Source: a bacterium (GTDB lineage: Bacteria; UBP15; UBA6099; JBFMBQ01). Taken from it: a stretch of 32,894 bases of DNA. The DNA is taken from assembly GCA_040755115.1 (NCBI GenBank), contig JBFMBQ010000512.1, forward strand, positions 4,515 to 37,408. The letters run 5' to 3'. The notes under the pieces were generated by a model that had not been told where the DNA came from, did not search any database, and saw only the letters and a list, made by a program, of their open reading frames with translations. Of this stretch, positions 5,487 through 32,894 are shown piece after piece (the first letter of the stretch is position 1; every line of letters starts with the position of its first letter). The position numbers and the translations under genes were made by a program.

Positions 5487-5501
5487 TGGTTTAACTTTGA
5501 T

Positions 5502-5529
5502 ATTATATAGAGGCTTCCTTATTTTTCAA
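5502..5529 (-). promoter_or_regulatory. Candidate sigma70-type promoter upstream of the GH31 gene
   Basis: The minus strand reads TTGAAA-N16-TATAAT. It would give a very short leader before the TTG start, so confidence is low. Confidence 0.3.
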
Positions 5530-5571
5530 CAATTAATACCGAGTTGCAATCAAACGATTACTAACAAATGT

Positions 5572-5610
5572 AAAAAAATGAGATTGCCACGGCGCTGCGC
5601 GCCTCGCAAT
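5572..5610 (-). terminator. Rho-independent terminator-like hairpin downstream of the 213-aa ORF
   Basis: The minus strand reads attgcgaggcgc-gca-gcgccgtggcaat followed by ctcattttttt. It is a GC-rich imperfect palindrome followed by a T7 run. Confidence 0.55.
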
Positions 5611-5688
5611 GACAGTTTTTGAACGCACCTTAGTATAAAAAACATGATGTTGTTAATAATTTTTTCATCATTTCATGGCAATAAATAA

Positions 5689-5718
5689 TGTAGGGGCGCA
5701 TGGCAGTGCGTCCCTACA
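5689..5718. repeat. REP-like palindrome, single unit (TGTAGGGGCGCA...TGCGTCCCTACA)
   Basis: tgtaggggcgcatggcagtgcgtccctaca. It has the same TGTAGGG/CCCTACA termini as the other three loci. Confidence 0.7.
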
Positions 5719-5787
5719 TCTGTGTAATATATAGATTATCTTTTATCGCTGAAAGTTATTAATTTAAGAATTGCATAATATCTAATA

Positions 5788-6429: not shown

Positions 6430-6482
6430 GAATTGTCCCGAACATTAATTGGCAATCATTTTTCGTATAAATTCTACTGTAA

Positions 6483-6510
6483 ATTATAGCCGGTGCTCTA
6501 CAAACATCAA
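6483..6510 (-). promoter_or_regulatory. Candidate sigma70-type promoter for the 213-aa ORF
   Basis: The minus strand reads TTGATG-N16-TATAAT, about 50 nt upstream of the ORF start. Confidence 0.4.
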
Positions 6511-6524
6511 GGAAAATAAAAAAA

Positions 6525-6589
6525 CCCGGCAGCGTCTGACTCTCCCACAGGGTCGCCCCTGAAGTACCATTATGCGCTGGAGGGCTTAA
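6525..6589 (-). pseudogene. 5S rRNA fragment (3' ~65 nt only), a duplicate of the 3' part of the intact 5S at 7227-7342
   Basis: cccggcagcgtctgactctcccacagggtcgcccctgaagtaccattatgcgctggagggcttaa matches 7227-7290 except for one substitution and a small indel. The preceding aaataaaaaaa is shared too. Similarity stops abruptly at 6590. Confidence 0.85.
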
Positions 6590-6692
6590 AACAGATGATG
6601 ACAGGGAAGAAATTGAGAGGATCTACGGCATAAAATGATGAATACCTCTATCATTACAAGTGCAATAACTCCACGACTTCATTTCTTCGGCA

Positions 6693-6914
6693 CTATCGCG
6701 CAATCTGGTAAATTACTGGCTTATACCTGGGTGGAGGTATAGATTTGCCCGCCGCACGGGCAGCTTCAATCCAAGCCTTCTTGGCGATTTCCAGTTCCGT
6801 CAGAGCGCGCTCAGGTGTTTCACCAAACGCAGAGCAGGCATCCAAATCCGGAATATCGGCGATGTATCCACCGTCCTCCTTACTGTAGAAGATGTTGATG
6901 TGATAATCGCTCAT
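6693..6914 (-). CDS. hicB: HicB family antitoxin
   Basis: A 73-aa protein starting MSDYHINIFYSKEDGGYIADIPDLDACSAFGETPERAL, typical of the UPF0150/HicB N-terminal fold. Its start lies 2 nt after the hicA stop. Confidence 0.8.
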   Translation of the reverse strand: MSDYHINIFYSKEDGGYIADIPDLDACSAFGETPERALTELEIAKKAWIEAARAAGKSIPPPRYKPVIYQIAR

Positions 6915-6916
6915 AG

Positions 6917-7168
6917 TTAGTCCTCCAGGCGAAGATTATATCTTTCAACCAATCGTAAAACCTGACGAAGTTGATAGGGTTTCGCCTCACCCTTTACTTC
7001 CTGAAGATTGACCTGCTCTTGGATTCCATTATGAATGAAGATGTGGTGGCTGCCGCTAATGCGGTCAAGTTTGAAACCGAATCCTTCAAGCAGGTTAACA
7101 GCGTCTTTGAAAGATACATTTTTGAACGAGCCTTTTGCGAGTTTCTTTACAAGTTTATCACGGCGCAT
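6917..7168 (-). CDS. hicA: HicA family mRNA-interferase toxin
   Basis: An 83-aa protein with the GSHHIF motif and the size and charge typical of the HicA/YcfA family. It lies upstream of hicB in the canonical toxin-first order. An extended -10-like TGGTATACT sits at 7183-7191 on the minus strand. Confidence 0.8.
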   Translation of the reverse strand: MRRDKLVKKLAKGSFKNVSFKDAVNLLEGFGFKLDRISGSHHIFIHNGIQEQVNLQEVKGEAKPYQLRQVLRLVERYNLRLED

Positions 7169-7226
7169 ACTTAGATTATTTTAGTATACCAATTTTTATA
7201 ACATCCTTATAGTATAAATAAAAAAA

Positions 7227-7342
<116 letters not shown>

Positions 7343-7351
7343 AAAATTATT

Positions 7352-7759
7352 TTATTTTTCTTTCAAAGATCGCAAAGAGAGCAACTCTACCATTGGCATA
7401 TCTGGCGATAAAGGATTGGGCATTAAGGTTTTAGTTTTTGGATCAACGATAAAGTCTAAGGCTTCTAAAACTACCTGCCCTACAAGAGGTTGTGAACCCT
7501 CCGCCTCTGCCAATACCTCAAAAATGCCTTTTCGCCCTTTAATCTCAAGGGCTATCGCTCCATACACATATTTCTTTTCTCTCTTGTTATTTGCATATCT
7601 AACCGTTGCTTCTCTTATCTTTTTTAGTCCTAATTCATACACGAGATTTTGAGGCAATGTCATCAGCGTTGCGCCGGTATCAATGACCGCATCAACTTTA
7701 ATTGATTTTTTACCGTCAAATATGTTTGATAGTTTTACCTTCTCAATTACTTTTCCCAT
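7352..7759 (-). CDS. Retropepsin-like (clan AA) aspartic protease, encoded inside the 23S-5S spacer
   Basis: A 135-aa protein with the active-site motif VIDTGAT (D27-T-G-A) in a small single-domain protein. It is on the same strand as the rRNAs. Its stop codon lies 9 nt before the 5S 5' end. Confidence 0.7.
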   Translation of the reverse strand: MGKVIEKVKLSNIFDGKKSIKVDAVIDTGATLMTLPQNLVYELGLKKIREATVRYANNKREKKYVYGAIALEIKGRKGIFEVLAEAEGSQPLVGQVVLEALDFIVDPKTKTLMPNPLSPDMPMVELLSLRSLKEK

Positions 7760-8215
7760 ATTCTATGAATTTTCTCTAATATTTTTTTAACTCTTTCTGT
7801 TTTCCCATCCATTATATCCGCTTTCTTTCAGTTATTGTGAATTCACCTCCTTTCTGTTGTTTTTTCAGCAACTCTTCACAAGTGCACAGGCGAGAAGCGG
7901 AAAGCAGATATAATTAACTAATGATTACAAAAGGGTCAAGCGATTGACCAATTAGTACCGGTCTGCTCAACGCATTACTGCGCTTACACACCCGGCCTAT
8001 CAACCTGATAATCTTTCAGGGGTCTCTCGCATCTTGCGATGCATGGAGATCTCTTCTTGGGATGGGTTTCGCACTTAGATGCTTTCAGTGCTTATCCCGA
8101 CCGGACATGGCTACCCTGCAATGCCGCTGGCGCGACAACAGGTACACCAGAGGTCCGTCCATCCAGGTCCTCTCGTACTATGGACAGACTCCCTCAAATC
8201 TCCAGCGCCCACGAA

Positions 8216-8300
<85 letters not shown>

Positions 8301-8303
8301 GTC

Positions 8304-8391
<88 letters not shown>

Positions 8392-8568
8392 GGTAACTTT
8401 TATCCATTGAGCGATGGCCCTTCCACGCAGCGCCACCGGATCACTAGGTCCTGCTTTCGCATCTGCTCGACCCGTCGGTCTCACAGTCAAGCACCCTTAT
8501 GCCCTTACACTCAACGCACGATTTCCGACCGTGCTGAGGGTACCTTTGAATGCCTCCGTTACAGTTTG

Positions 8569-8601
<33 letters not shown>

Positions 8602-8822
8602 ACACTGTTCCCCCGCCGGCTAACGGCGCAGGGTTAGAACTCCGACTTACCCAGGGTGGTATTTCAAGGTTGGCTCCAGGGGACCTGACGACCCCCCTTC
8701 AAAGCCTCCCACCTATCCTACACAGGACAAACCAAAGTTCAGTGCCAGGCTACAGTAAAGCTCCACGGGGTCTTTCCGTCCTTTCGTGGGTAACCCGCAT
8801 CTTCACGGGTAGTGCAGTTTCG

Positions 8823-8901
<79 letters not shown>

Positions 8902-9604
8902 CTAATCTGTTACTTTGTAACTCTGGTTTCCCAGAGCGGACTGGTCATTTCTGCCAGTCTCCCTGTGTCGCCACAGGGTACGGACTGTATCTTCACCCTT
9001 TCAGGATGTCCGGCGTTCAGTCTCTGAGGATGCTAAAAACCGTGATATTTTTCTCCTGTTCATAGTTTGGGCGATTTCGGCTATCTCCTTAATACCTTCC
9101 AATGTCTGATGCTTACCTTCTTTCATCATCTTAACAACCCGTACAAACTTCTGAAAATCATCCTTCTTCGCGGTTCGCAATGGATTTTCCAAGAAAAAAG
9201 GAATTATCTTGTCCTGCAAATCTTTCAAACTGCGGACGCAATACCTATAAAGGTGTTCTTTATGAGTATCATGTCTACGGTTTATAAAGATATTCCCACA
9301 ACTAAAAAATTCTTTAAGTAATTCTAAAGATTGCCGACTTTTTTCGCCCTGTGTAACTACAAACTCGGGAAATACCTGCCAGCCTATAGATGTTGAAGCC
9401 TTCTGAATTGTTACAGAAAAGCATCCCTCTCCATCTATAAAGCCAACTATCCAGCCTGTGGTTTTTAGCCTTTCCTGCTGATTGTCTGCACCCATCACAT
9501 TGTTACCTCAAAATTTTTCAAGGTAGTGTGGGATACTAACCAGATGTTCCAGCATACAGCCGGATGCGCTTATATCATTATTGATATAAAGGGCAACTTA
9601 TGTT
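8902..9604 (-). mobile_element. Group I intron in 23S rRNA at the position equivalent to E. coli U1931 (L1931)
   Basis: A 703-nt insertion between ...AACGGTCCTAAGGT and AGCGAAATTCC.... The 5' exon ends in U and the intron ends in G. Core elements: P-like GGCTGTATGCTGGAA (9547-9561), Q-like AATCAGCAGG (9474-9483), R-like TCAGAGACTGAA (9016-9027) and S-like AAGATACAGTCC (8982-8993). Confidence 0.85.
9001..9498 (-). CDS. LAGLIDADG homing endonuclease (single-motif type) encoded in the L1931 intron
   Basis: A 165-aa protein with the motif WIVGFIDGEGCF. It is AT-rich relative to the rRNA exons. Its 5' end overlaps the Q element and its 3' end overlaps the R element of the intron. Confidence 0.85.
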   Translation of the reverse strand: MMGADNQQERLKTTGWIVGFIDGEGCFSVTIQKASTSIGWQVFPEFVVTQGEKSRQSLELLKEFFSCGNIFINRRHDTHKEHLYRYCVRSLKDLQDKIIPFFLENPLRTAKKDDFQKFVRVVKMMKEGKHQTLEGIKEIAEIAQTMNRRKISRFLASSETERRTS

Positions 9605-9607
9605 ACC

Positions 9608-10162
9608 TTAGGACCGTTCGTTGATGTTAACTTCCGGTTTACCGGAAGACCGGACTATATCATCATCCAATCTGTTGAAATCAGATGTCTGGCGTATAGT
9701 CTCTGAGGATTCCTGAAACTTCTTAAGTATCTTCCCTTCGCTGTACCTGCGCTTGCCGCCGTCGTTCATCTCACGCCGTATTTCAAGAATTTTCCTTATC
9801 CCTTCTTCTGTGAGATGCTCCCCTTTTTGGATCATCTCAGCCGCCTTGCAGAACTTTGAGAAATCACGCTTCTTCTTCGCGGATAGAAAACGGTATTTCT
9901 TGAAGAACGGGATTACTTTCTCCCAAAGAGCATTGAAGTTATTTACCTCGTAATACCAGACGCCGTCTGGTCTGCTTCTCAATGTCCCGCAGCCTAAATG
10001 GCGTTTATACAGCGCGAGGATAACCTTGTCCCTTTGTGAGATATTGAAACACAGGGAGACTTTCCACGGCGTTTTGTAATCTGCGCGGGGTCTTAAGGAA
10101 ATATTGAAACTTCCTTCTCCGTCAGCGAAGCCTGCCAGATAATAACCTATCTCTGGTCTCAT
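9608..10162 (-). CDS. LAGLIDADG homing endonuclease (single-motif type) encoded in the L1917 intron
   Basis: A 184-aa protein with the motif YLAGFADGEGSF. The ORF runs through the intron 3' end and its TAA stop (9608-9610) lies inside the 14-nt micro-exon. Confidence 0.85.
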   Translation of the reverse strand: MRPEIGYYLAGFADGEGSFNISLRPRADYKTPWKVSLCFNISQRDKVILALYKRHLGCGTLRSRPDGVWYYEVNNFNALWEKVIPFFKKYRFLSAKKKRDFSKFCKAAEMIQKGEHLTEEGIRKILEIRREMNDGGKRRYSEGKILKKFQESSETIRQTSDFNRLDDDIVRSSGKPEVNINERS

Positions 10163-10309
10163 GGCTGACTCCCTTCTTCAGGTCTTTCCTGCTGATTGTC
10201 CCTATCTGACAGATTGTTACGACCCGTCCCTTGATATAACGGATGTACTGTCAGCCTGACAGGATTTTCCAGCATATAGCCAGATTTTATAACTACTGTG
10301 GTCCAAACA
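9619..10309 (-). mobile_element. Group I intron in 23S rRNA at the position equivalent to E. coli U1917 (L1917)
   Basis: A 691-nt insertion between ...GCCGTAACTAT and AACGGTCC.... The 5' exon ends in U and the intron ends in G. Core elements: P-like GGCTATATGCTGGAA (10267-10281), Q-like AATCAGCAGG (10188-10197), R-like TCAGAGACTATA (9695-9706) and S-like ATGATATAGTCC (9652-9663). Confidence 0.85.
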
Positions 10310-10929
10310 ATAGTTACGGCCGCCGTTCACTGGGGCTTCGGTCGTGGGCTTCGCCCCCCGAAAGGGGCTGACTCACTTCCTTAACCTTCCAGCACCGGGC
10401 AGGCGTCAGTCTCTATACATCGGCTTTCGCCTTAGCAGAGACCTGTGTTTTTGCTAAACAGTCGCCTGGGCCTCTTTACTGCGGCCCCCTCGGGCTAAGC
10501 AGCAGGAGTTAACCTGCCCTCTGCCCTACCGGGGCACCCCTTCTCCCGAAGTTACGGGGCGATTTTGCCTAGTTCCTTAACGAGGGTTCTCTCGCTCGCC
10601 TTAGGATATTCTCCTCGCCTACCTGTGTCGGTTTACGGTACGGTCACCTGTGCTCCTCCTTAGAGGTTTTTCCTGGCAGTATGAGTGCGGTCAGTTCGCT
10701 TTATCCGAAGATGCCGCTCCTCCTTCCCCTCAGAGTTGAATGGGCGCATGCATTTTCACGCACCCCTCCTACAGAGTTGGAACACACACTTCCATCCGTG
10801 TGATGACCTGCCCTCCTGCGTTACCCCATCAGTGCAAGCGTTGCACAGGTGGTGCTGGAATATTAACCAGCTAGCCATCGCCTACGCCTCTCGGCCTCGG
10901 CTTAGGACCGACTGACCCTGGGCGGACGA

Positions 10930-10960
<31 letters not shown>

Positions 10961-12468
10961 GATGAGATTCTCACTCATCTCTCGCTACTCGTACCGGCAT
11001 TCTCACTTCTATCCAGTCCACCAGTCCTTGCGGTCTGGCTTCACTCCACGATAGAACGCTCCCCTACCACTCCGCTCGCCGCCGCAGCGGCAAGACGAAG
11101 TCCGTGGCTTCGGTGTCAGGCTTAAGCCCCGTTACATTTTAGGCGCAGAGCCACTTGACCAGTGAGCTATTACGCACTCTTTAAATGGTGGCTGCTTCTA
11201 AGCCAACATCCTGGTTGTCTCTGTAATTCAACATCCTTCTCCACTTAGCCTGACTTAGGGACCTTAGCCGACGGTCTGGGCTGTTTCCCTCTCGACTACG
11301 GAGCTTATCCCCCGCAGTCTCACTCCCAGGGTCTCACCTGCGGTATTCGGAGTTTGATTGGGTTTGGTAACCGGTGAAGGCCCCTAGTCCATTCAGTGCT
11401 CTACCTCCGCAGGCTAAATTCCTGAGGCTGCCCTTAAAGGCATTTCGGGGAGAACCAGCTATAACCAGGCTCGGTTGGCTTTTCACCGCTATCCACAACT
11501 CATCCAAGCCCTTTTCAACGGACACTGGTTCGGACCTCCACATGGTCTTACCCATGTTTCATCCTGGTCATGGATGGATCGCCTGGCTTCGGGTCTATAG
11601 CGCACAACTGGGTCGCCCTGTTCAGACTCGCTTTCGCTCCGGCTCCGGGTTGTAACCCCTTAACCTTGCTGCGCACCATAACTCGCCGGTTCATTCTACA
11701 AAAGGCACGCTGTCAGGCATTCCGTGCGCGCCGAAACGCACATGGCATAGCCCTCCAACGGTTTGTAGGCATGCGGTTTCAGGTTCTATTTCACTCCCCT
11801 AACAGGGGTTCTTTTCGCCTTTCCCTCACGGTACTTGTCCACTATCGGTCACCAGGTAGTATTTAGCCTTGGAGGGTGGTCCCCCCAGTTTCCCAAGGGA
11901 TTTCCCGTGTCCCATGGTACTTAGGAACAGATGCCAGAGCCATTCCCCTTTCGTGCACGGGACTGTCACCCTCTATGGTGTCACTTTCCAGAGACTTGCA
12001 CTAAAGGAACGGTTTGTAACTCTGCCGCCCGGCCACAGCCGAACGCGCATCTGCCCTGCAACCCCGCAGCGACAACGCCTGTGGGCTTGACATCGCCACG
12101 GTTTAGGCTTCTCCCCGTTCGCTCGCCACTACTAAGGGAATCTCGGTTGATTTCTCTTATGCGGGGTACTGAGATGTTTCACTTCCCCCACTTCGCCTCC
12201 ACACCCTATTTTATTCAGGTGCGGATGACGGGGCATTACCCCCGCCGGGTTTCCCCATTCGGAGACCTACGGATCTAAGGATGCTCGCTCCTCCCCGTAG
12301 ATTATCGCAGCCTGCCGCGTCCTTCGTCGCCTCCCAGTGCCAAGGCATCCACCGCATGCCCTTGCTCGCTTGACCCTCATCTTTTCACTAAGATCAAAAT
12401 CTGCCTACCCACTTCTCTAGCCTATGCACTTGTCAAGGTTCGCCGGCTTTAAGCCATTTTATTCCGAT

Positions 12469-12498
12469 AAAAAAACCCCGAATAATTCGGGGCTTTTT
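12469..12498. terminator. Symmetric (bidirectional-looking) terminator-like hairpin in the 23S leader / GH38 upstream region
   Basis: aaaaaaa-ccccgaa-taa-ttcgggg-c-ttttt. The stem is 7 bp, flanked by an A-run and a T-run. Its role is unclear because it lies between the candidate promoter and the 23S 5' end. Confidence 0.4.
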
Positions 12499-12606
12499 CC
12501 CAAGTTATACCACCGAACTATTCCTCTAATAAATAAACTTCCTCTGGTTTGTTGCTCTGGTGTTCAATATCAGGCTTTTCCTCAACTCCTTCTTTTTACT
12601 ACATAT

Positions 12607-12635
12607 AATTTAACCACATCTGAAAAATTAGTCAA
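12607..12635 (-). promoter_or_regulatory. Candidate sigma70-type promoter with an AT-rich upstream tract, pointing towards 23S
   Basis: The minus strand reads TTGACT-N17-TAAATT, preceded by aaaaaaaaatttttttaattgta (UP-element-like). It lies about 230 nt upstream of the 23S 5' end. Confidence 0.35.
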
Positions 12636-12903
12636 TACAATTAAAAAAATTTTTTTTTGACACAGAATAACTTTTATAAACAGGCAATTGAATGAATTAA
12701 AAACTTTGGTTTCGTTTTTTGCTTTCGTTCTGTCCGCGGCAGGATAAGGCGACAGATATTGAATCTCATTATTGTTTATTAATTTATTAATTGGTGCAAT
12801 ATATGCTTCCGATACATGTTAAAATAAGCGGGCGGGAAAACCGGCTCTCGTTGAGCGGTTGCGGGGCTCTAATCGCAGTTCGGGGTTCGCAAATCAAATA
12901 ATA

Positions 12904-15900
12904 ATGAAGAAGAGGTGCCCAATGCGTAAAATAATTACGACAACAATTTTATATTCGCTGATTATCTTCTCTGCTTTCGTTATGTCAAATGTGAATATCA
13001 CCGCTAAAGACGGCACGCCAAAGCACCGCTCTTTCATCATACCCCATTTTCACTACGACCCTGTCTGGACGAACAGTCAGGCGGGCGAAACGATGCGCGC
13101 CTTCTCCATCCTTCATCAGGTTCTGGAATTCCTGCCCACAGACGAGCGCACGAAATTCGTCCTCTGCGAAGTGGATTACCTCAAACCTTACTGGGACGCC
13201 TATCCCCGTAACCGCAAGCCGCTCCTTGACTTCATCGCCGCAAACCGCATTGAGTTGACAGGCGGCTACAGCGAGCCGGACGAGGCAAGCGTCGGCGGCG
13301 AGGCGCTTATCCGCAATTTCATCTACGGCAAGATTTTCAAGGAAGCCGCTTTCGGCACACAGGTTGAAGTCGGTGCGCAGCACGATGTGTTCGGTCACGC
13401 TGTCCAGTTGCCGCAGATTCTGCTCAAAACAGGCCACACCGCCGCACAGTTCTCACGCGGCAACCTCACCGATCTGCCTCACGATTTCCTCTGGCTCGCT
13501 CCCGACGGCTCCTCCATACTCGCAAAACAGATCGGCTACGGCGGCACCGCAGCAACCACTCTCCTTGAGGCGCGCGACCTCTCATTATACAAACTCCACG
13601 GCAATGCGATGTTTATGTCGGGCGGCGATTTCTCCGAACCCGACCGAACAATCAGCAAGTTCATTAAAAAAACCAAATCCTTTGAAGTCATCGTCGGCAC
13701 TCACCGCGATTATTTCAACGCCGTGCGCACCGCGATCAAAGAACGCGGCATAGTCATGCCGGAAGTATCGCGCGACCACACCCCGCTGCTGCCGGGCTGC
13801 TATTCATCGCGCACTGACACGAAACTCGCAAACCGCTGGAACGAAATCACCCTCGCCGACGCCGAAAAGTTCGCCTCCATCGCCACACGCCTCGGCGCGC
13901 TCTACCCCCACGCCGCTCTGGACAAAGCCTGGCGGCTCCTCCTCTTCGGGCAGCACCACGACGCCCTCACCGGCAGCGATACCGAAAATGTAAATCTTGA
14001 CCTCCTCACCGCTTGGCGCGAATCGCTCTCTCTCGCCTCATCCGTCCGCGATAATGCCCTCAAACTCATAACCGCAAACATTGATACAAAATCCTCAGCG
14101 CCCTCAAATGCCATCCCCGTCGTCATCTTCAACAGCCTCAACTGGGATCGCTCCGAACCCGTCAACCTTTCAATTCCTCTTACAACGCCTGCCAACGGTT
14201 TCAATCTCGTTGATTCCGAAGGCAGCCCCGTGCCTTTCCAACTCGCCTGGAACGCAGGCGCGCCGCCCTACAAACGGGCGGACATCCTCTTCATCGCCGC
14301 TGTTCCCTCTCTCGGTTACGCCGCCTACTACCTTGTCCCATCCGACAATATGCCCAAGGATGTAATCCCAAAACGCACTGACGGCACAACCGCCGAAAAC
14401 GATTTCTTCACCATAAAAGTTGACCCCGCCCGCGGCGGCGGCATCGTAAGCCTCTATGGAAAAACGGAACAGAAAGAATACATCAATCCGCAAACCGGCG
14501 TCGGCAACGAAATTTTCGCCATCAAAGAAAACAACGCAAAGGTGGAAGGTCCTTGGAGCATCCATTCAACAGGACAGGTGTGGCGCTCCAGCGATTACCC
14601 GGCAGAAAAAGTGCAGGTTGAATCAGGTCCAATTGCTGCGCGCATCATTGTTAATGGTGCGCCGCAAACTGACAAAGTCAAAATCTACGATGGAAACGAC
14701 ATGCTTCTTCAGACGAAAAACGAAGATGTCCTCTGCCGCCGAACACAGGAAATAATCCTCTACAAAAATCTCCGCCGCATTGATTTCCGCACGCACCTGA
14801 TTGATTTCAAAGAAACGGATTATCTCTATAAAGTCGGCTTTCCGGCATCCGTCAGCGGCGCACTCCCTGTCTTCGGCGAACGCTTCGCAGCAGTCGGACG
14901 CGACAAAAACACCGAAAAGTTCATGTTTTACGATTTCTGGCGCGAACCCGGCGTAAAGCGCGGGCGCGAATACCCCGCCTATATGTGGATGGATTTCACC
15001 TCGCCCGCACGCCTTGAATTTACTGACGGAAAAGGCGATGTGAAAACCTCGTTTGCGCTCGCTATCGGAGAACTCGTTATTCCGGACGACGATGCTGTGC
15101 GCAGCCTCTCCAACCAACTCGCACGCGCCTTCGCAAGAAAAGGCGTTACAACAACGCCGACCGACGACAAAAAACAACGCACGAACGAATACTACGGCTT
15201 TCGCATCACGCTCGGCGCAGAAAACAACGCATACACCAATAAATTAGTTGAAAGTTTATCCTCAAATGCACACGACACCCTCACCACTCAACTTGATAAA
15301 CAGGGCTACGCCTTCCTGTTCGTCCAGCCGGCGGATTCGGTAACCGCAACCGAAGACCGCAAACCTATCCCGGTGCTGATCGTAGAAGCAAAAGACGCCG
15401 CAAAACTTCAAGAAGCCGTCAGTCTTCTCACGGCGCAACTTGAGAAGGACGGCAATATCAGACTTGTGGAAAATGTGAACGCCGCAAGCATAACGGGCAC
15501 GATAGAACCATTCGGCATAGCGCTACTTGACCGCGGGCACACGGGTTACAGCGTGGAAAACAACGACACCCTCACGATGACATTGATGAGAAGTTCCACC
15601 GGCTCGCCTTCCGGACGCCTCTACTCACGCAACCTTGAAGTTGAAAACTGGAACCACATCTATGAATACAGTCTCGTCCCGCACACAGGCGACTGGCGCT
15701 CGGCAAAGATTTACCGCACAGGTTGGGAATTCAATCATTCCCTCTACCCCGTAACCACCCGGCAGCACGGTGGGGAATTGCCAGCCGTTAAATCGTTCCT
15801 GTCCACTCAGGGCACAGACGCCGTCATCACTGCGCTTAAACCCGCTGGCTTCCCATTCGTTGCCAGTGAACCCGATGCAACTTCCACATCCCCCGACACC

Positions 15901-17455: not shown

Positions 17456-18457
17456 TCACTTTCTCATTTCCCTCTTAATCTTTAATTCTGACACTCGACT
17501 CATTATTCGTTTTCTATCCTGCAATGTGTTCCTTTCCCAAAAAACCCCGTCGTCGTAGCCCTGTATTGTCTTGTCTTTCTCGGCAAGATGCAGCCGCTTT
17601 TCTGCAAGGCAGCAGTAAATTTCGTCAATCTCAACGCCAGCGTATCGCCTGCCGAGTTTTTTCGCAACGACGGATGTTGTGCCGGAGCCTGAAAACGGGT
17701 CAAAAACGAAATCGCCTTCATTGGAACTTGCGAGAATGATTTTTGCAAGGAGTTTTTCAGGTTTCTGTGTCGGGTGGTCTGTGTTTTCAGGCATTGACCA
17801 GAAGGGAATGGTCATGTCGTTCCAGATGTTAGACGGATGCGTCAGGCGGAAGCCGCCATCATCGCTCTTCTCCCAGTCTTTGGGCATCCTGTTTTCGTCT
17901 GTATAAGGTGCAATTACCCTTCGCTTAAGTTTCACCGCATCAATGTTGAAAGTGTATTTATCCGACTTCGTGCAGAACCATATATCTTCCGAACAGTTCT
18001 TCCAGTTTGACTTTGCCCCTCTGCCCTTCTCGCGTTCCCAGGTGATGCGGTTTCGGATGATCAGATGATGTCTTTCAAGGACTCTGTGAATTGCGGCTGA
18101 CGAGCGCCAATCGCCGCAGATATACACCGATGCGGTGGGCTTGAGAACATTTATAAGTTTTGGAAACCATTTTTCAAACCATTCTTCATATTCCACTGTC
18201 GTCATTTCTTTGAACTGATTTGAACTGAATGATTTTGTGATGTTGTAAGGTGGATCAATAAAGAGAAGATCAACGAAATTTGCGGGGAGAAAATTCAGTA
18301 TTTCAAAAAGATTCTGGCAGATTGTTTTGTTTTCAATATCTCTGGTTTCAACTTTGCGGGTAAGTTTAATCAGTTTTCTGCCGAAAAATTTCTTCTCTGC
18401 GGGCGTGAGCGAGACAGTCCTGTTTCGCGGCGCGCGGGTTTTTTCTTTATTGTTCAT
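17456..18457 (-). CDS. Site-specific DNA methyltransferase, beta-class N6-adenine/N4-cytosine family (DPPY type), no cognate nuclease nearby
   Basis: Motif IV LLFIDPPYNI precedes motif I FDPFSGSGTTSVVA, the beta-class permutation of the N6_N4 MTase family. HPTQKPEKLL is also present. Confidence 0.85.
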   Translation of the reverse strand: MNNKEKTRAPRNRTVSLTPAEKKFFGRKLIKLTRKVETRDIENKTICQNLFEILNFLPANFVDLLFIDPPYNITKSFSSNQFKEMTTVEYEEWFEKWFPKLINVLKPTASVYICGDWRSSAAIHRVLERHHLIIRNRITWEREKGRGAKSNWKNCSEDIWFCTKSDKYTFNIDAVKLKRRVIAPYTDENRMPKDWEKSDDGGFRLTHPSNIWNDMTIPFWSMPENTDHPTQKPEKLLAKIILASSNEGDFVFDPFSGSGTTSVVAKKLGRRYAGVEIDEIYCCLAEKRLHLAEKDKTIQGYDDGVFWERNTLQDRKRIMSRVSELKIKREMRK

Positions 18458-18506: not shown

Positions 18507-18959
18507 CTATGCACTACTGAGCAGGCGGGTTACGACCTGATTGACAAGTTTCCCATCCGCCTTGCCTTTAAGTTCCATCATCAGCACCTTCATCACCTTG
18601 CCGATGTCCGACGAAGCGGCGGCGCCGGTGGCGGCGATTACCTCGCGTGCGCGTTTCTCTATCTCTTCTTCCGTCAGCATCGCAGGCAGAAATTCATTTA
18701 TGAGTTTCATCTCCCGCTCTTCTTTCTCTGCGGGTTCATCCTTGCCCACCTTGCGATATTCCTCCGCAGCCTCCTGCCGCTTGCGGGCTTCCTTCTGGAG
18801 CACCTGCAAAACCTCACCCTCCTCAAGCGCGCGCTGCACCTCAACTTCTTTGTATCGCAATGCGGTCTTCAATGCGCGCATCGTGTTGAGCGCTGTCTCA
18901 TCTTTCCGCTTCATCGCCGCTTTGAGTTTTTCCGTGATCTGTTCTGCAATCCCTGGCAT
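18507..18959 (-). CDS. GatB/YqeY domain-containing protein
   Basis: A 150-aa protein with ITEKLKAAMKRKDETALNTMRALKTALRYKEVE and a C-terminal GKVMKVLMMELKGKADGKLVNQVV, typical of the YqeY family. Confidence 0.85.
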   Translation of the reverse strand: MPGIAEQITEKLKAAMKRKDETALNTMRALKTALRYKEVEVQRALEEGEVLQVLQKEARKRQEAAEEYRKVGKDEPAEKEEREMKLINEFLPAMLTEEEIEKRAREVIAATGAAASSDIGKVMKVLMMELKGKADGKLVNQVVTRLLSSA

Positions 18960-27843: not shown

Positions 27844-28677
27844 TTATTTCCCACTCTGTATATATACATCTCCGCTCACCGATTTGATCGCGATTTCCAC
27901 ATCGCCCTCACCGATTGTGCCTTCCATCAGCCTTCTGCCTGCCTCATTTGTGATTTGCAGCGGCAGATCGGATGTTATTTCCCCGCTGACTGTAAAAACT
28001 CTGACCGTTCCCTGAAATGCTGTCGGAAGCGCAATGTCGGTGTCTCCACTGACAGTTTTAAAGGAGATATTTTGTGCGATGTGCGCAGTTCCGTCTAATC
28101 GTATATCGCCGCTTACTGTTTCAGCGACCAATTTGCCTTCGCAGTCCTTCAGGAAAACTCCGCCGCTTACGGAGCGCACTTCCGCATCACCACCCGCTTC
28201 CTCAAGGACGACATCACCGCTTACTGCTCCAGCCTTTATTGAACTTTTCATCTTGCGCACTTTAATATTCCCGGAGACGGTCTTCAGGACGAGGGGTGCT
28301 GCCGCAGGGGCGGTTATGGTGTAGTCAATCCGCCCGCTCAATCTGCGCCAGCGGGGCGGTCGGTGTGTAACGATGAGTATTTCATCATGACGGCTTGTGA
28401 TAACCATCTTGAGATGTGCTGACTCCCGACGCGACACAGTGAGCGATTCGGATGAAACCGTCTTCAGCCCTGTTACAGTTAACTCATTATCTTTGCCTGC
28501 CTCAACCTTAATATCGCCTGCAATCTCTTCAACAACGATTTGCTGCCCCTCGTGCCACATAAGGTTTTTCTCCTCGCTTCGGGCATACTTATTGTCAAGT
28601 TTCATTGAAACGCACGAGGGCATCAGGATTACAAAACACAAGAAAAGCGTAACGGTTCTTTCAAAATAACTGTTCAT
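27844..28677 (-). CDS. DUF4097 family beta-strand repeat protein (putative adhesin/lipoprotein)
   Basis: It carries repeated VSG[DG][IV]x[LVI] strands (VSGNIKV, VSGDVVL, VSGGVFL, VSGDIRL, VSGDTDI, VSGEITS, VSGDVYI). The N-terminus is signal-like and ends in PSC. Confidence 0.8.
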   Translation of the reverse strand: MNSYFERTVTLFLCFVILMPSCVSMKLDNKYARSEEKNLMWHEGQQIVVEEIAGDIKVEAGKDNELTVTGLKTVSSESLTVSRRESAHLKMVITSRHDEILIVTHRPPRWRRLSGRIDYTITAPAAAPLVLKTVSGNIKVRKMKSSIKAGAVSGDVVLEEAGGDAEVRSVSGGVFLKDCEGKLVAETVSGDIRLDGTAHIAQNISFKTVSGDTDIALPTAFQGTVRVFTVSGEITSDLPLQITNEAGRRLMEGTIGEGDVEIAIKSVSGDVYIQSGK

Positions 28678-29191
28678 TGCTATCTATATTATTGTGTTTT
28701 GTGCAAAAAGTGCAAAGCATATCCCACACATCTTTTATGTCAAGTAACTTCTTATGGTAAAACTCTGCGATGTCAGTGAAGATACCGAAAACGAGTTCTT
28801 CTTCAGAGTGGCGTTTCTCTACCTCTTTGAGCTGTTCAGGGAACAGATTCCACTGGGAAAGATGCGGTAGTCTTGCTTTCTGTGCGAGATAATCCCGTTC
28901 GGCGCGGTGCGTGTCAGGCATCCTGCCGGCAGCGTTTTTTGTTACGACACCGGATTGAATGAATTCCACGAGATGAAGAACATCATCGCCGACACCGCAG
29001 CCCCAGCACTTCCAGAATTGATTGCGCCGGTCTATGTGTAACGAATGGTGCGATACGCTGACGTGCCGCGGACAGTCAACGTGAATGACGTTGCCAGAAT
29101 CGTCGGTAATGCGGTCTGCGAGTAATTCTCTTGCGACTTCGGCAATGTCTATGTTTGTGATCTGTGAATAGTATTCCTTCGGATTATTCAT
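28661..29191 (-). CDS. CHC2 zinc-finger protein, N-terminal fragment of a DnaG-type/phage-type primase (no TOPRIM domain)
   Basis: CPRHVSVSHHSLHIDRRNQFWKCWGCGVGDDVLHLVEF matches the CHC2 primase zinc-finger pattern C-P-x-H-x(n)-S-L-x-I-x(n)-F-x-C-x-G-C-G-x-x-G-D. The ORF ends about 60 aa after the finger region and overlaps the DUF4097 start by 17 nt. Confidence 0.7.
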   Translation of the reverse strand: MNNPKEYYSQITNIDIAEVARELLADRITDDSGNVIHVDCPRHVSVSHHSLHIDRRNQFWKCWGCGVGDDVLHLVEFIQSGVVTKNAAGRMPDTHRAERDYLAQKARLPHLSQWNLFPEQLKEVEKRHSEEELVFGIFTDIAEFYHKKLLDIKDVWDMLCTFCTKHNNIDSNEQLF

Positions 29192-29475: not shown

Positions 29476-30228
29476 TTATCCGAAAAAAAAAGACAGCCTT
29501 TGTTCATAAGTCTGGACGGCATCATTCAGAGAATCTATGGTTCCGATATCGAACCATGTACCCTTGTGAACATACCCAAGGAGTCTTTTTTTTGCGACGA
29601 GCCATTGTATGAAATGTCCGATAGATTTGATCGTTTTTTCGTTCTCATTTATTGTCTTAAGATAGTCATGAGCGAATTCAATTGTTCCTTCAGTAAAAAT
29701 ATAGCATCCAGCGTCTATGTAATGGGATTGCGGGTGTTCTGGCTTCTCCGTGTATGTAATGATCTTCCTGTCTTCGTCCATTACAACAACACCATATTTC
29801 CTGGTGATCTTGTCGAGATCATCCATTTCATATAACGAAATTACAGATTCCTTTTTTTCTGCGAAAAAGTTCACGATGCTGTCCAGATTCCAGTCGAAAA
29901 GAGTATCTCCTAATATTATCATAAAATCCTCTATCAAATTGTCTTGTTTCGCGAAGAACAGTAGTTCATTTACTAGACCTGCTCCCGACATTGGAAAAAG
30001 CCGCAGAGGTTTTCCCCAGCGAAAACACTTCGACCAGTTCATGAAGTGAGAATTCTGATGTACATTTGTCAATAGAATTATTTCATCTATCTCTGACAGG
30101 ATTTCTATTTTTTCCATTATGTAGTTCAGTAATGGCTTGCCAACAACGGGGACAAGGGGTTTGGGAATGAATTTAGTAATAGGAAATAGTCTAGTTCCCA
30201 TGCCAGCTGCCGGTATGATAGCTTTCAT
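29476..30228 (-). CDS. Sugar-phosphate nucleotidyltransferase (RmlA/GalU-fold NTP_transferase family)
   Basis: MKAIIPAAGMGTRLFPITKFIPKPLVPVVGKPLL is the G-x-G-T-R-x(n)-K-P nucleotide-binding signature. The protein is 250 aa and AT-rich. Its start lies 34 nt downstream of the stop of the cyclase-radical SAM ORF. Confidence 0.8.
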   Translation of the reverse strand: MKAIIPAAGMGTRLFPITKFIPKPLVPVVGKPLLNYIMEKIEILSEIDEIILLTNVHQNSHFMNWSKCFRWGKPLRLFPMSGAGLVNELLFFAKQDNLIEDFMIILGDTLFDWNLDSIVNFFAEKKESVISLYEMDDLDKITRKYGVVVMDEDRKIITYTEKPEHPQSHYIDAGCYIFTEGTIEFAHDYLKTINENEKTIKSIGHFIQWLVAKKRLLGYVHKGTWFDIGTIDSLNDAVQTYEQRLSFFFG

Positions 30229-30262: not shown

Positions 30263-32470
30263 TCAGATGAAATCTGGCACCCGGGATCTTGGAAAATACG
30301 GCTTCTCTATCTTATTTTTCAAAACCTTTTCCATGTTGATAATTTCTTGAATCATTTGTTGGTAATCAGCAATCCGGCAGTTGCATGTATAACTGGCTTT
30401 GCATATGTTTTTCACACTCAGATTCTGTATAATGTTTTTGTGCTCATTGCTGCCCCAGAAGTCACTGAGACTACTCTCGGAATTCATCCGATACTTTCCA
30501 ATTTCCATGTTTTGGGGATCGTTGTGATATCCGAAGCAAACAAACACCCCACCGTTGGGATCTATTACCGGACTAATGGGGTTCAACCAGCATCGGAATT
30601 TTTCCGGATAGGAAGTTCTTCTCACATCAATCTGTAGATCCTCATAACTGTTGTCGGAGGATTTCAGGGAGTATAATTTTTCCTCCATTTCTCTGATTTC
30701 CTCTTTTGAGGGTTCGACGGTATCCATACCTCGAATAGATTTGACCTTGATATGAGTAGCACCATAACTACGGGCTTTTTTAACGATGTCAATTATGCTG
30801 TCTTTATTCGTTTTTGTCATTAGAATTTTGACACCGATTGTTGTTCCAACAAGAGGTTGTCCTTTACAATAATTAGCGAGCTTACCAAGTCTTATGTAGA
30901 ACATCAATTCTTCTATGTTCCCTGTTTTCAAACCTTCAACGTAACTCAGTCTTATATAATCAAAAACGTTCGCTGACTCCTCCATGAGGTCATCCTCTAA
31001 GTACTTTCCGTTGGTGATTAGACCGAATTTCATACCACTTTTTTTCTTTTTAGATATTATGCTCAATAATTTTACAAAATCATGATGTTCCATCGGCTCG
31101 CCGCCGCCGGCGATTTCACAGGAAGTCAGTTCATTCAAGCCTGTTGTTGATTTATTCCTCAAATTATCGAGATCATTTAGGATGTGTGCGAATAAGTCAA
31201 CATTCATACTTACTCTATCCAGACCTCTAAAATCCTTATACATGCAATTCGGACACCGAAACGAACATATATATGTCGGGTAAATAATGACCTGTTTAGG
31301 AAGAGGCAACAACTCCGCATTTTGTTCATCGTGCATTACATTCCATATTCTTTTTGCATGATCCAGATAGAGTAATATGCGTTTTTTGGAATTCATCTGA
31401 TCTGTGAATTCCGCCGCATCCCACATTGAATTAAACTCTTCTGAAAAAGTCTTAAAATGTTCTGTGTCTTTTCCCTCCAGTAAGTATGTCGGGGTCTTGT
31501 CGCCGTGTGATGAATGTCCTAGGTAATGGTGCACATACATGACGCGGTCGTCTGATATCGTCATGGCACGAAACATTATCTGGTTCGTAACTTTATCAAC
31601 AATCATACCAAAGCAGCCATTTTTCTTCGCTTGGTCCTTTATATCTGAGATTATTTTCAAAGTAGAATGGATTTTATCTCTTAACTCAAAAGGTAACCAC
31701 CTATCGGTCTGAGAGAATTGTTGCAAGTAATTCTCATAAGGGTTCAAGAGCAGCACGCGTATCGTGCATCCTTTGTATAGAAGATTGTAAATAATATCTC
31801 TATGTTTTGTGAATATCGGGATCATGGAATGTCCCATTATGTCCAACTTATGTTTTGTGTTTTTGAAGAAATCTGTCCATTCGTCGACTTCAACTTCTCC
31901 CCTTATGGAATACATTTCAACGATTCCGAACTTTTTTATTTCATATACTGTTACTTGGTGATCAAATCCTTTGAACTGTTGCTGTCCCACAAGTTTGAAT
32001 TTTTTTCTGAGTGCAGGTTTCAAATCGTTATATAAATCTTCTGACGCAAATATCTGGTCATCTTTTGATATATCCAGAATCCTCTTTGTCAAGCTGAGGT
32101 CCAATGAGAATTCGGGGTCGCCTTTTTTATCCAGTTCGGCTCTCCCTCTATGTAGTCCAATATTGACAGTGATCTTATTTCCGTTCTCGATATTTAAATC
32201 GATGTTACGATTGCGGGTTGCAAGCCGTCGCTGTATTTCCAGAGCGCATCTGACACAATCGTTCGAATCTTGGAACCATGCTAAAAAGGCATCTCCTTCT
32301 GTACCCTTACCTTGTCCATTATATTCTTTTACTAAATTTATCATAAACTCTCTGATGGTTAAAACGAGTTTCTTGCCTCTCACATCACCAATTTTCCTGT
32401 ACATTACCGTAGAATCTTTAATGTCTGCCATCATAAAGGCAAATTTTTTTCTTCTACCTATTTCCCTCAA
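30263..32470 (-). CDS. Fusion protein: class III adenylate/guanylate-cyclase-like domain + unrecognised middle domain + radical SAM domain with SPASM/twitch-like C-terminal cysteines
   Basis: The cyclase motifs are in order: FAFMMADIKDST, TEGDAFLAWF, VNIGLHRGRAEL, IFASEDLYNDL and FKGFDHQVTVYEI (aa 9-180). The radical SAM part has YPTYICSFRCPNC (C402/C406/C409, nt 31244-31267), AGGGEP and GLITNG. The C-terminus has C627-X12-G-X4-C645 and C690-X5-C696-X-C698. The TTG start has AAGGAAG 6 nt upstream, and no ATG precedes the first cyclase motif. Confidence 0.75.
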   Translation of the reverse strand: MREIGRRKKFAFMMADIKDSTVMYRKIGDVRGKKLVLTIREFMINLVKEYNGQGKGTEGDAFLAWFQDSNDCVRCALEIQRRLATRNRNIDLNIENGNKITVNIGLHRGRAELDKKGDPEFSLDLSLTKRILDISKDDQIFASEDLYNDLKPALRKKFKLVGQQQFKGFDHQVTVYEIKKFGIVEMYSIRGEVEVDEWTDFFKNTKHKLDIMGHSMIPIFTKHRDIIYNLLYKGCTIRVLLLNPYENYLQQFSQTDRWLPFELRDKIHSTLKIISDIKDQAKKNGCFGMIVDKVTNQIMFRAMTISDDRVMYVHHYLGHSSHGDKTPTYLLEGKDTEHFKTFSEEFNSMWDAAEFTDQMNSKKRILLYLDHAKRIWNVMHDEQNAELLPLPKQVIIYPTYICSFRCPNCMYKDFRGLDRVSMNVDLFAHILNDLDNLRNKSTTGLNELTSCEIAGGGEPMEHHDFVKLLSIISKKKKSGMKFGLITNGKYLEDDLMEESANVFDYIRLSYVEGLKTGNIEELMFYIRLGKLANYCKGQPLVGTTIGVKILMTKTNKDSIIDIVKKARSYGATHIKVKSIRGMDTVEPSKEEIREMEEKLYSLKSSDNSYEDLQIDVRRTSYPEKFRCWLNPISPVIDPNGGVFVCFGYHNDPQNMEIGKYRMNSESSLSDFWGSNEHKNIIQNLSVKNICKASYTCNCRIADYQQMIQEIINMEKVLKNKIEKPYFPRSRVPDFI

Positions 32471-32565
32471 AACGGCTTCCTTTGTGTATATTTATTATTT
32501 TGAAATATTACCGTGTAATCTTCAGAAAATCCAGCCCCATTTCGAATGATGGTTAGTTATAGTAT

Positions 32566-32751
32566 TCACACCTCCGGCAAATCCTTATACTGCCACTTCT
32601 TAGTTGAGTTCATCTCGATGTGTGTGGCTTTGCCGTTTTCAAACTTTATTATAACACACCCATAGAACCTTTCGTAGAACAATTTTGAAAGAAATCTAAA
32701 TAGTTTTTCCATCGGTCTTGTTACCATTATATCACTTGATTTCGTTTCCAT
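32566..32751 (-). CDS. Small protein, DUF2292/YezD-like (61 aa from ATG 32751)
   Basis: FYGCVIIKFENGKATHIEMNSTKKW resembles the YezD pattern (F/Y)G-S-(V/I)-x-(I/L)-x-(V/I)-x-(D/N)-G-K-(V/I)-x-x-(I/V)-E. ATG 32751 has GGAGGG 5 nt upstream and overlaps the helicase stop by 20 nt. The upstream part of the listed 97-aa ORF is the helicase gene read in another frame. Confidence 0.45.
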   Translation of the reverse strand: METKSSDIMVTRPMEKLFRFLSKLFYERFYGCVIIKFENGKATHIEMNSTKKWQYKDLPEV

Positions 32752-32893
32752 TGAAACCCTCCAGACCCAAGAATGTTTTTCGTTTCTCTGTAAACTCGCG
32801 TGCAGCGCAGTTCCGTATACCCCACCGATCACCGATGATGATAGCGGTCTGTTTGGCACGTGTGACGGCGGTATAGAACAAGTTGCGATGGTG
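32732..32893 (-). CDS. C-terminal end of a RecD-like / superfamily 1 DNA helicase (5' part outside the window)
   Basis: The minus frame from 32893 reads HHRNLFYTAVTRAKQTAIIIGDRWGIRNCAAREFTEKRKTFLGLEGFNGNEIK*. YTAVTRAK is SF1 helicase motif VI as found in RecD2/TraA-type helicases. The segment is too short to appear in the ORF track. Confidence 0.6.
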   Translation of the reverse strand, partial: HHRNLFYTAVTRAKQTAIIIGDRWGIRNCAAREFTEKRKTFLGLEGFNGNEIK

Positions 32894-32894
32894 C

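Follow-up and report, generated by a model that had tools for sequence, protein, structure and literature searches.

The stretch of DNA analyzed here, hereafter the window, comprises 32,894 nucleotides (nt) of contig JBFMBQ010000512.1 from a bacterium of the UBP15 lineage. Toward its right-hand end lies a complete gene, referred to below as the fusion gene, whose single product joins a divergent class III nucleotidyl cyclase domain to a middle domain with a predicted phospholipase D (PLD) fold and to a radical S-adenosylmethionine (SAM) domain that, together with its auxiliary Fe-S site, occupies residues 396-705. The features of this locus are collected in Table 1. The open reading frame (ORF) is exactly that of a preliminary description of this DNA, with the same ends, strand, length and TTG start, and this TTG is the sole in-frame start ahead of strand beta-1 of the cyclase fold (cyclase alignments begin at residues 9-10).

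Table 1. Genes, protein domains and signals at the fusion locus (window coordinates; residue numbers are those of the fusion protein)
Feature	Position	Strand	Size and basis
Left-flank protein, CHC2 primase zinc ribbon alone	28661..29191	-	176 aa; PF01807 3e-5; GC 0.461
RmlA-like sugar-1-phosphate nucleotidyltransferase	29476..30228	-	250 aa; PF00483 1e-38; RmlA structures 1e-19
Cyclase / pseudo-PLD / radical SAM fusion gene, complete	30263..32470	-	735 aa; TTG start; stop included
Auxiliary Fe-S (twitch/partial-SPASM) region, aa 620-705	30356..30613	-	C627, C645, C690, C696, C698
Radical SAM core, aa 396-600	30671..31285	-	PF04055; CX3CX2C C402/C406/C409; GGGEP 455-459
Pseudo-PLD (DUF5919-like) domain, aa 181-385	31316..31930	-	AlphaFold2 model; Foldseek; DUF5919 sub-threshold
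Divergent class III nucleotidyl cyclase domain, aa 9-178	31937..32446	-	PF00211; Ma1120 (4wp9); alignment with eight cyclases
AAGGAAG, Shine-Dalgarno-like	32476..32482	-	5 nt before the TTG start; read from sequence
Small upstream ORF	32566..32859	-	97 aa (about 60 aa if an internal ATG is the start); separated from the fusion gene by 95 nt
Right-flank gene end (C-terminal), running off the window, TAVTRAK	32732..32894	-	Translation

The fusion ORF is one unbroken frame with a uniform GC content across its three parts (0.378, 0.386 and 0.389). As a whole it has a GC content of 0.385, close to the 0.389 of the nucleotidyltransferase gene that follows it in the same direction 34 nt downstream, and both are unlike the genes to the left (0.46-0.56). 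Uniform composition, a continuous frame and a GC content distinct from that of the left-hand genes make a frameshift or chimeric-assembly artefact unlikely. The three-part architecture is thus genuine, and two genes joined by a frameshift, a possibility that the preliminary description had raised against itself, are not what is found, since the frame is single, the composition uniform and the domain junction placed as in the relatives described below. The same description had placed the gene in an AT-rich insert, and the foreign composition of both genes, together with their spacing, bears this out. The fusion gene was acquired horizontally with the RmlA-like nucleotidyltransferase gene, which is its probable cassette partner.

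The N-terminal domain is a divergent class III cyclase domain, as had been claimed in essence. PF00211 (Guanylate_cyc; curated cut-off 21.9 bits) gives 23.5 bits with the complete sequence and 27.9 bits with the domain alone, from residue 8 or 9 to 178 and over profile positions 7-181 of 183, and structures of the mycobacterial minimal cyclase Ma1120 align with the domain at an E value of 5e-13. An alignment with eight cyclases, Ma1120 included, shows D16, G59, D60 and R130 to be invariant; the metal-binding aspartate pair (D16, D60), which thus falls in invariant columns as predicted, and the transition-state arginine (R130) are kept. The canonical transition-state asparagine, earlier called unclear beside a retained arginine, is absent: Ser126 stands four residues before R130, and it is Asp124 that aligns with the Ma1120 asparagine. 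The position of the substrate-specifying lysine, four residues before D60, is occupied by Gly56, with Lys55 one residue earlier, and that of the substrate-specifying aspartate by Pro119, with Asp118 one residue earlier. In addition, Asn103 replaces the arginine of the "RIGxHxG" strand. The "KGTxGD" variant of the fusion cyclase is common to protein P0137, and P0003 reads "QGTEGD". From these residues, binding of NTP-Mg seems probable and catalysis plausible, although they do not allow base specificity or activity to be predicted. P0137 and P0143, considered as candidate cyclase plus middle-domain proteins, were rejected, being a cyclase with TPR and a cyclase with DUF4384, respectively.

The middle domain, in which no nameable motif had been seen, can now be named as a DUF5919-like PLD fold. 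An AlphaFold2 model built on a multiple sequence alignment of 44 sequences (pLDDT 91.9, pTM 0.82) gave 94 Foldseek matches in the PDB at E<=1e-3, and all 50 of those listed are PLD-fold proteins or pseudoenzymes. Vaccinia F13, the TrmB sugar-binding domain (1e-6), TrmBL2, the FAM83 pseudo-PLD, NucT, Nuc and Zucchini were matched at E values of 8e-7 to 1e-5, and PLD3, PssA and MITD1 are also among the 50. The Foldseek probability is 1.0 and the best E value 8e-7, with query-normalized TM-scores (TMq) of just 0.4-0.5. At the sequence level, DUF5919 scores 15.1-18.8 bits in the fusion protein, under its 23.5-bit cut-off, and matches 12 of 44 relatives at E<0.01 (best 1.6e-5). The model assigns the middle domain to the PLD superfamily. 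The HKD positions (HxK(x)4D) read F300-x-A302-x4-D307, with a family consensus of Y-x-S-x4-D in which the aspartate is the only invariant position; D307 and Y316 are invariant among the 44 relatives. Because the HKD histidine and lysine are replaced (F300, A302), the domain is a pseudoenzyme. PLD-fold domains typically pair up, Nuc and Zucchini being dimeric, and by analogy with these two and with TrmB and FAM83 the middle domain may serve as a ligand-binding and/or pairing module.

The radical SAM domain proposed in the preliminary description is well supported, with PF04055 scoring 31.9-33.7 bits (cut-off 29.5 bits). The three cysteines of the CX3CX2C motif, the SAM-binding GGGEP and G483/N487 are invariant across the 44 relatives, as are C627, C645, C690 and C698 of the C-terminal region, C696 being the majority residue at its position. 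The C-terminal cysteines form the pattern C627-X12-G640-X4-C645 and C690-X5-C696-X-C698; five in number, compared with seven in a full SPASM domain, they are too few for the seven-cysteine, two-cluster motif. PF13186 (SPASM) accordingly stays at 16.5-18.1 bits against a cut-off of 21.5 bits and TIGR04085 at 13.8 against 27 in the fusion protein, and SPASM matches 31 of the 44 relatives (best 2.5e-9). The family profile aligns with the twitch region of BtrN (residues 164-242) at an E value of 2e-9, and the C627-X17-C645 spacing equals that of BtrN C169/C187. With five cysteines and a match of BtrN type, the C-terminal region is predicted to be twitch-like and to hold one cluster. Of the SPASM/twitch likeness suggested earlier, the listed cysteines and the twitch character therefore stand and a full SPASM domain does not. 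Likewise, the Pfam matches foreseen for the separate segments were obtained above cut-off for PF00211 and PF04055, with DUF5919 sub-threshold in the middle, and the foreseen Pfam SPASM match stayed below its cut-off.

Against PDB profiles, the family is closest to SuiB (4.5e-12), and its matches to the twitch/SPASM enzymes BtrN, DesII, BlsE, SuiB, PqqE and anSME span 4.5e-12 to 6e-4; MoaA, YydG, CteB and SkfB match as well, and viperin only at 1e-3. The likeness to the enzymes BtrN, DesII and BlsE is about equal to that to peptide maturases. No NCBIfam equivalog was approached: TIGR04317, the best, scores 62 bits where 380 are required, and the viperin model NF038283 reached 35.9 of the required 180 bits, over residues 399-510 alone; the PADLOC pVip match (4e-12) is likewise partial. 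Since the radical SAM and auxiliary-cluster residues are invariant, the radical SAM enzyme activity is under selection.

The wider family was collected by an exhaustive HMMER search against 1.84 billion representative proteins, which returned about 55 representatives at E<1e-30. Most of the matches listed align to residues ~180-711, that is, to the pseudo-PLD and radical SAM domains (E 1e-71 to 1e-30), and carry unrelated N-termini; their lengths range from fragments of about 230 aa to 1124 aa. None of these matches except the query covers residues 1-180 as well, and neither this library nor 139 fetched loci contain a further cyclase-bearing member. Similarly, the fusion protein forms its own singleton cluster in protein libraries of 5.8 billion and 1.84 billion sequences, and a word-indexed homologue search returned only the query itself and two weak cyclases with the protein as query, and a single radical SAM protein with the 44-sequence profile. 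Conservation of the fusion among homologues, which the preliminary description had put forward for testing, is therefore not observed, and the cyclase version is confined to the fusion protein.

The N-terminal slot of the relatives is strikingly varied. According to a Pfam census of 44 family members, it holds TIR_2 (15), TIR (6), ThsB_TIR (2), HD-CE (2), CHAT (2), Metallophos (1), Nuc_deoxyrib_tr (1) and, in the query itself, Guanylate_cyc (1); one or two transmembrane (TM) helices occur at the N-terminus of about 13 members, and about 8 lack an N-terminal domain. Among these N-termini we recognize what we take to be catalytic motifs, namely the CHAT His/Cys pair, the HD motif, metallophosphatase GD/GNH and the TIR glutamate. 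The "G-I" junction to the core is the same for the cyclase as for the other N-termini, and a hidden Markov model of the middle domain matches exclusively proteins that also bear a radical SAM domain. The hallmarks of the family are a contiguous pseudo-PLD and radical SAM match, D307, Y316, the three radical SAM cysteines, GGGEP and C627/C645/C690/C698, and the fusion protein conforms to all of them. On these sequence comparisons, the pseudo-PLD and radical SAM domains constitute a conserved core with an interchangeable N-terminal slot. Split versions were also observed: a TIR-like ORF lies immediately upstream of an effector-less core at loci L061 (47-2953) and L072 (9558-11611), with a 146-aa ORF between the two at L061. 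Separate TIR genes beside effector-less cores indicate that effector and core can be separate genes.

Members come from at least four phyla and are rare and patchily distributed, falling into clusters of 1-3 sequences with generic public names. A motif-limited scan for related loci, which used a 10-sequence alignment, found matches in 4 of 185,579 species genomes; three are full-core matches (Phycisphaerae, Desulfobacterota and Bacteroidales), and the fourth, from Hydrogenedentota, is a contig-truncated match to the radical SAM region. The CHAT-bearing Thermoflexales member P0037 comes from cluster records and two contigs (L220 and L221), not from the species-genome scan. The radical SAM domain closest to that of the fusion protein (41% identity) belongs to P0006, at locus L141, a stand-alone protein of 378 aa without a PLD-like domain.

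Genomic context analyses of the relatives point to a defence-like setting. At L220/L221, nSTAND1 genes, a gene for a 1317-aa CHAT-WD40 protein and transposase genes surround P0037. Locus L140 has a HEPN and NTP_transf_2 gene pair, which we read as MNT-type, plus PLDc_2, and at L142 a ThsB-type TIR and a PIN gene lie near the family gene. In Desulfospira joergensenii DSM 10085 (L003, 8741-11629), an effector-less member of 574 aa lies between two transposase genes. The 61 neighbours of 18 family loci match 45 PADLOC models, PDC-S13 at 4e-119, with PDC-M10A/B, DolB, REase_III, TIR-TM, AbiLi, AriA and ThsB among the others. As a control, 70 neighbours of stand-alone radical SAM relatives gave mostly cross-matches of viperin models to other radical SAM genes. 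This contrast is suggestive, being a qualitative comparison. In the same census of 61 neighbours, no Pfam family occurs in more than two of the 18 loci, so the family gene has no conserved partner. The pairing with NTP_transferase, whose conservation had also been put forward for testing, was seen again at just one of about 25 other loci: at L067, a TM-type member is followed 10 nt on by a full-length NTP_transferase homologue (27% identity, 249 vs 250 aa).

Comparison with described systems revealed partial likenesses to several. Prokaryotic viperins (pVips) are radical SAM enzymes in an anti-phage setting and share this domain type with the fusion protein, the partial pVip match covering the CX3CX2C/SAM-binding half. 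However, pVips stand alone, have a length of about 300 aa and are not known to contain an auxiliary cluster, PLD-like domain or effector fusion; the fusion protein has extra domains and an auxiliary cysteine region, scores far below the viperin cut-off and is nearer in profile to SuiB, MoaA and BtrN, and it is not a viperin. Twitch/SPASM enzymes such as BtrN, DesII, BlsE, SuiB, PqqE and anSME have the same CX3CX2C core with a C-terminal cysteine-rich auxiliary domain. In contrast to them, a pseudo-PLD domain invariably stands before the radical SAM domain in this family, in most cases with a death-type effector domain as well, and no equivalog is reached. The TrmB sugar-binding domain, the FAM83 DUF1669 domain and DUF5919 share the PLD fold (Foldseek about 1e-6) and the loss of the HKD histidine and lysine; they differ from the middle domain in the modest TM-scores, the sub-threshold DUF5919 match and the fusion to radical SAM found here. 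DUF5919 usually follows a helix-turn-helix domain.

Pycsar and Pucsar systems resemble the fusion gene in having a class III-type cyclase and a defence-like context, and their TIR and TM effectors have counterparts within its family (10.64898/2026.08.12.744502). Their cyclase and the effector that binds cyclic nucleoside monophosphate (cNMP) are, however, separate proteins, whereas here the cyclase fills the slot otherwise taken by TIR or TM. PycC models match the fusion protein only partially (residues 11-112) at 7e-5 or weaker, and its window neighbours are the NTP_transferase, the small ORF, the primase zinc-ribbon protein and the helicase-like gene end, with no Pycsar-type effector, so that the gene does not belong to Pycsar. 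Two validated anti-phage systems need a radical SAM enzyme: Ophion, with the radical SAM protein OpnA, a PHP protein and a phosphoribosyltransferase (PRTase; 10.1101/2025.09.30.679545), and HXS, in which radical SAM chemistry matures an HxS-repeat effector (PMC13128918). Unlike the fusion gene, both are multi-gene systems with other partners and without a PLD-like domain or swappable N-terminal effector; the fusion locus, for its part, lacks PHP, PRTase and HxS-repeat genes.

A parallel in organization is provided by the NTP-dependent conflict systems and STAND/Avs proteins, in which a constant core carries interchangeable TIR, caspase-like, HD, TM or cNMP-cyclase N-termini and in which cNMP cyclase domains occupy effector slots, displacing caspase domains (Kaur et al., 2020; PMC7159879). 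Their cores are STAND, vWA or MoxR NTPases, whereas the core here is radical SAM with pseudo-PLD, and the same paper mentions radical SAM-SPASM proteins solely as stand-alone peptide maturases. Neither PADLOC 2.0 nor NCBIfam includes a model of the fusion architecture, and the searchable full-text literature (subscription-only journals lie outside it) has no description of it; no paper on DUF5919 was found there, and a search for HD-CE returned unrelated medical papers alone. NCBIfam gave just sub-threshold generic radical SAM matches for the stand-alone relatives. The earlier impression that this architecture had not been described thus held, with no already characterized family taking in the homologues: the fusion architecture represents a new family relative to described systems, and the cyclase member is unique within that family.

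A constant core, swapped N-termini, TIR fusion and fission, rarity, patchiness and foreign DNA are together the signature of conflict proteins. We see about an even chance that the fusion gene encodes the sole known cyclase-bearing member of a rare, single-polypeptide family of this defence type. Self-association is the activating step for each of these kinds of output, whether TIR NADase, caspase-like protease, pore-forming helix or class III cyclase, and the two-metal active sites of class III cyclases form solely at the dimer interface. From this common feature we infer that the core controls oligomerization, with the PLD-fold domain as its likely pairing element. In the mechanism we propose, the radical SAM and pseudo-PLD core would be the constant sensor or trigger, binding SAM and some ligand or substrate; core chemistry or ligand state would govern self-association, and self-association would switch on the N-terminal domain. 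In the fusion protein, self-association would join two cyclase domains, which would convert nucleoside triphosphate (NTP) into cNMP and pyrophosphate (PPi), and this output would act as an alarm signal to an effector encoded elsewhere or through nucleotide depletion. In the sister proteins, what this trigger would switch on are TIR domains that degrade NAD, helices that disrupt membranes, proteases or phosphohydrolases. Here and in the L067 cassette, the nucleotidyltransferase may supply a nucleoside diphosphate (NDP)-sugar that the core acts on or senses; indeed, the occasional NTP_transferase partner and the resemblances to BtrN, DesII and TrmB suggest an NDP-sugar as the best lead for the radical SAM substrate. 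Given the slot swapping of conflict type and its precedent (PMC7159879), the cyclase would be a swapped-in output and not a supplier of substrate to the radical SAM domain.

Several observations weigh against this interpretation. The invariant catalytic residues could fit a product-forming enzyme as well as a sensor, and with its non-canonical residue in place of asparagine and its shifted substrate residues, the cyclase may be inactive or may not cyclize. No cNMP-binding effector is visible within the window. As a singleton, the fusion protein offers no purifying-selection evidence for the fusion itself, and the defence-neighbourhood signal comes from 18-25 loci and is qualitative, many of the PADLOC matches being to "candidate" models. 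Annotated plasmids, phage collections and IMG/VR contain no full-core member, a result that is neutral as regards defence.

To our knowledge, radical SAM enzymes have so far been found in immunity as viperin chain terminators, in the three-gene Ophion system and as maturases of HxS-repeat effectors. If our interpretation is correct, a radical SAM core wired to the effector repertoire of CBASS, Pycsar, Thoeris and STAND systems would add a new principle of immune sensing or switching. It is possible, at somewhat less than even chances, that the family constitutes a new class of single-protein immune sensor, in which radical SAM and a dead PLD domain form the trigger, with radical chemistry or ligand binding as the switch and interchangeable outputs. 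Through the cyclase member, radical SAM chemistry would then be tied directly to second messengers or to the depletion of nucleotides, and pseudo-PLD domains of DUF5919 type would gain a role. The cyclase-bearing member has the most tractable readout, as cNMP and PPi are directly measurable outputs of the trigger, and the two-gene cassette in the window and the D. joergensenii DSM 10085 member provide concrete starting points. If the family is biosynthetic instead, it would be a new clade of radical SAM enzymes that modify NDP-sugars or nucleotides.

That biosynthetic alternative survives best among the rivals, and we consider it unlikely. The radical SAM domain would modify an NDP-sugar or nucleotide from the adjacent RmlA-like enzyme, and the product would serve as antimetabolite, signal or precursor of a glycan. 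The pseudo-PLD domain would form a lid that binds the sugar or nucleotide, and the N-terminal domain would be a regulator or contribute a second, independent activity. The co-directional NTP_transferase gene of the same foreign composition, its recurrence at L067, the profile matches to the BtrN twitch region, BlsE and DesII, the TrmB fold match and the invariance of the radical SAM catalytic residues all agree with it, as does the position of stand-alone relatives near glycosyltransferase, methyltransferase, radical SAM and NTP_transferase genes (the last at L098 and L107). However, about 24 of about 26 family loci lack NTP_transferase, none of the other sugar genes is conserved, and the island has no glycosyltransferase or export gene. 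Furthermore, TIR, TM, CHAT and HD N-termini are death-type effectors and not biosynthetic accessories, and the similarity to SuiB, PqqE and MoaA is at least as strong as that to the sugar enzymes.

An evolutionary one-off, in which a decaying cyclase was recently and accidentally fused onto a core that alone is functional, if anything is, appears less probable still. Such an event would explain why the protein is a singleton among about 15 billion proteins, with a TTG start and a cyclase domain marginally over the Pfam cut-off that has lost the canonical Asn, Lys and RIG-Arg. It accords poorly with 735 intact codons behind a good Shine-Dalgarno sequence, with the conservation of D16, D60, G59 and R130 and with a junction exactly at the family domain boundary; the "KGTxGD" motif or a near-variant also occurs in P0137 and P0003, and cyclases have displaced effector domains before (PMC7159879).

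Marginally lower again we rank chemical coupling, the preliminary idea, in which either the radical SAM domain modifies a cyclic or linear nucleotide made by the cyclase or cNMP made in cis regulates the radical SAM domain. The two domains share one polypeptide, the cyclase keeps its metal-binding aspartates and arginine, and the weak, partial viperin matches recall a group of nucleotide-modifying radical SAM enzymes. But the viperin score is far under its cut-off, no cNMP-binding domain is present, and in all other members the same core carries TIR, TM, CHAT, HD-CE, metallophosphatase or nothing; the core substrate is therefore not in general a cyclase product, and the idea is not upheld. Least probable by far is that the protein matures a ribosomally synthesized and post-translationally modified peptide (RiPP) or a protein, be it the product of the small upstream ORF, as had also been suggested, or another peptide: SuiB is the best PDB profile match, PqqE, CteB, YydG and SkfB match too, and the small ORF is close by, but that ORF has no homologue in the 139 loci, the census found no conserved small neighbour, neither Pfam nor NCBIfam gave an RRE/PqqD-like match, the region before the radical SAM domain is a PLD fold, and there is one auxiliary site.

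At the fusion locus itself, the small upstream ORF has no Pfam match and is probably outside the system; its stretch "YGCVIIKFENGKATHIEM" recalls, to our eye, small proteins of YezD/DUF2292 type, no Pfam model having matched. The CHC2 protein of the left flank, for which PF01807 scores 24.1 bits, just under its 24.9-bit cut-off, also matches the PADLOC RTasDnaG-like model (9e-6) and, like the cyclase domain, has no homologue in the 139 related loci. The TAVTRAK of the right-flank gene end is presumably helicase motif-VI-like. These two genes bracket the AT-rich cassette and resemble fragments of the replication module of a mobile element.

Some further arrangements were observed around the relatives. 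On the independent contigs L220 (6193-10366) and L221 (657-4830), a Trypco1 gene precedes P0037 and an unannotated 381-aa gene follows it after 7 nt; the three may form a three-gene variant of the system. A co-directional 250-aa ORF precedes the effector-less member of D. joergensenii DSM 10085, a culture-collection strain. At L074 (5163-7066), a TM-type member has two co-directional genes upstream of it; to our eye, the N-termini of their products resemble those of an AAA/OLD-type ATPase and of a DUF4276 protein, and we associate this combination with defence loci. At L141 (384-3815), P0006 is followed by genes for a SIS protein of 6-phospho-3-hexuloisomerase type and a 320-aa TIR_2 protein. 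A heptose-type NDP-sugar pathway among the neighbours (NTP_transferase, SIS and HAD) was considered and rejected in view of the type of this SIS protein; the HAD protein of L142 matches HAD_2 and related HAD families and is, in our estimation, not GmhB-type.

Stand-alone radical SAM relatives neighbour genes for family-2 glycosyltransferases, methyltransferases, B12-radical SAM and radical SAM/SPASM proteins. At L006, L008, L080 and L083 (about 5400-13300), the radical SAM/SPASM relatives lie in a co-directional block of recurring gene sizes that includes a TPR and family-2 glycosyltransferase protein of about 817 aa and constitutes an uncharacterized multi-radical SAM cluster. Further radical SAM/SPASM and B12-binding radical SAM genes are common neighbours in the wider set of such loci.

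Elsewhere in the window, the 23S rRNA gene (7932-12375, minus strand) spans 4.4 kb compared with a model of 2.9 kb and contains sub-threshold group I intron matches at 9631-10319 (38 bits) and 8961-9145 (34 bits; cut-off 50), and a LAGLIDADG homing-endonuclease ORF (9608-10162, minus strand; Pfam 6e-21) lies in one intron match. The 5S rRNA gene is located at 7226-7342, and between it and a GH31 gene there is a second AT-rich stretch (5000-6500, GC 0.35-0.38) with a 213-aa ORF that has no Pfam match (5788-6429, minus strand). An N6/N4 DNA methyltransferase gene (17456-18457, minus strand; PF01555 3e-45) lies among housekeeping and glycoside-hydrolase genes, with a 150-aa ORF just upstream of it (18507-18959).

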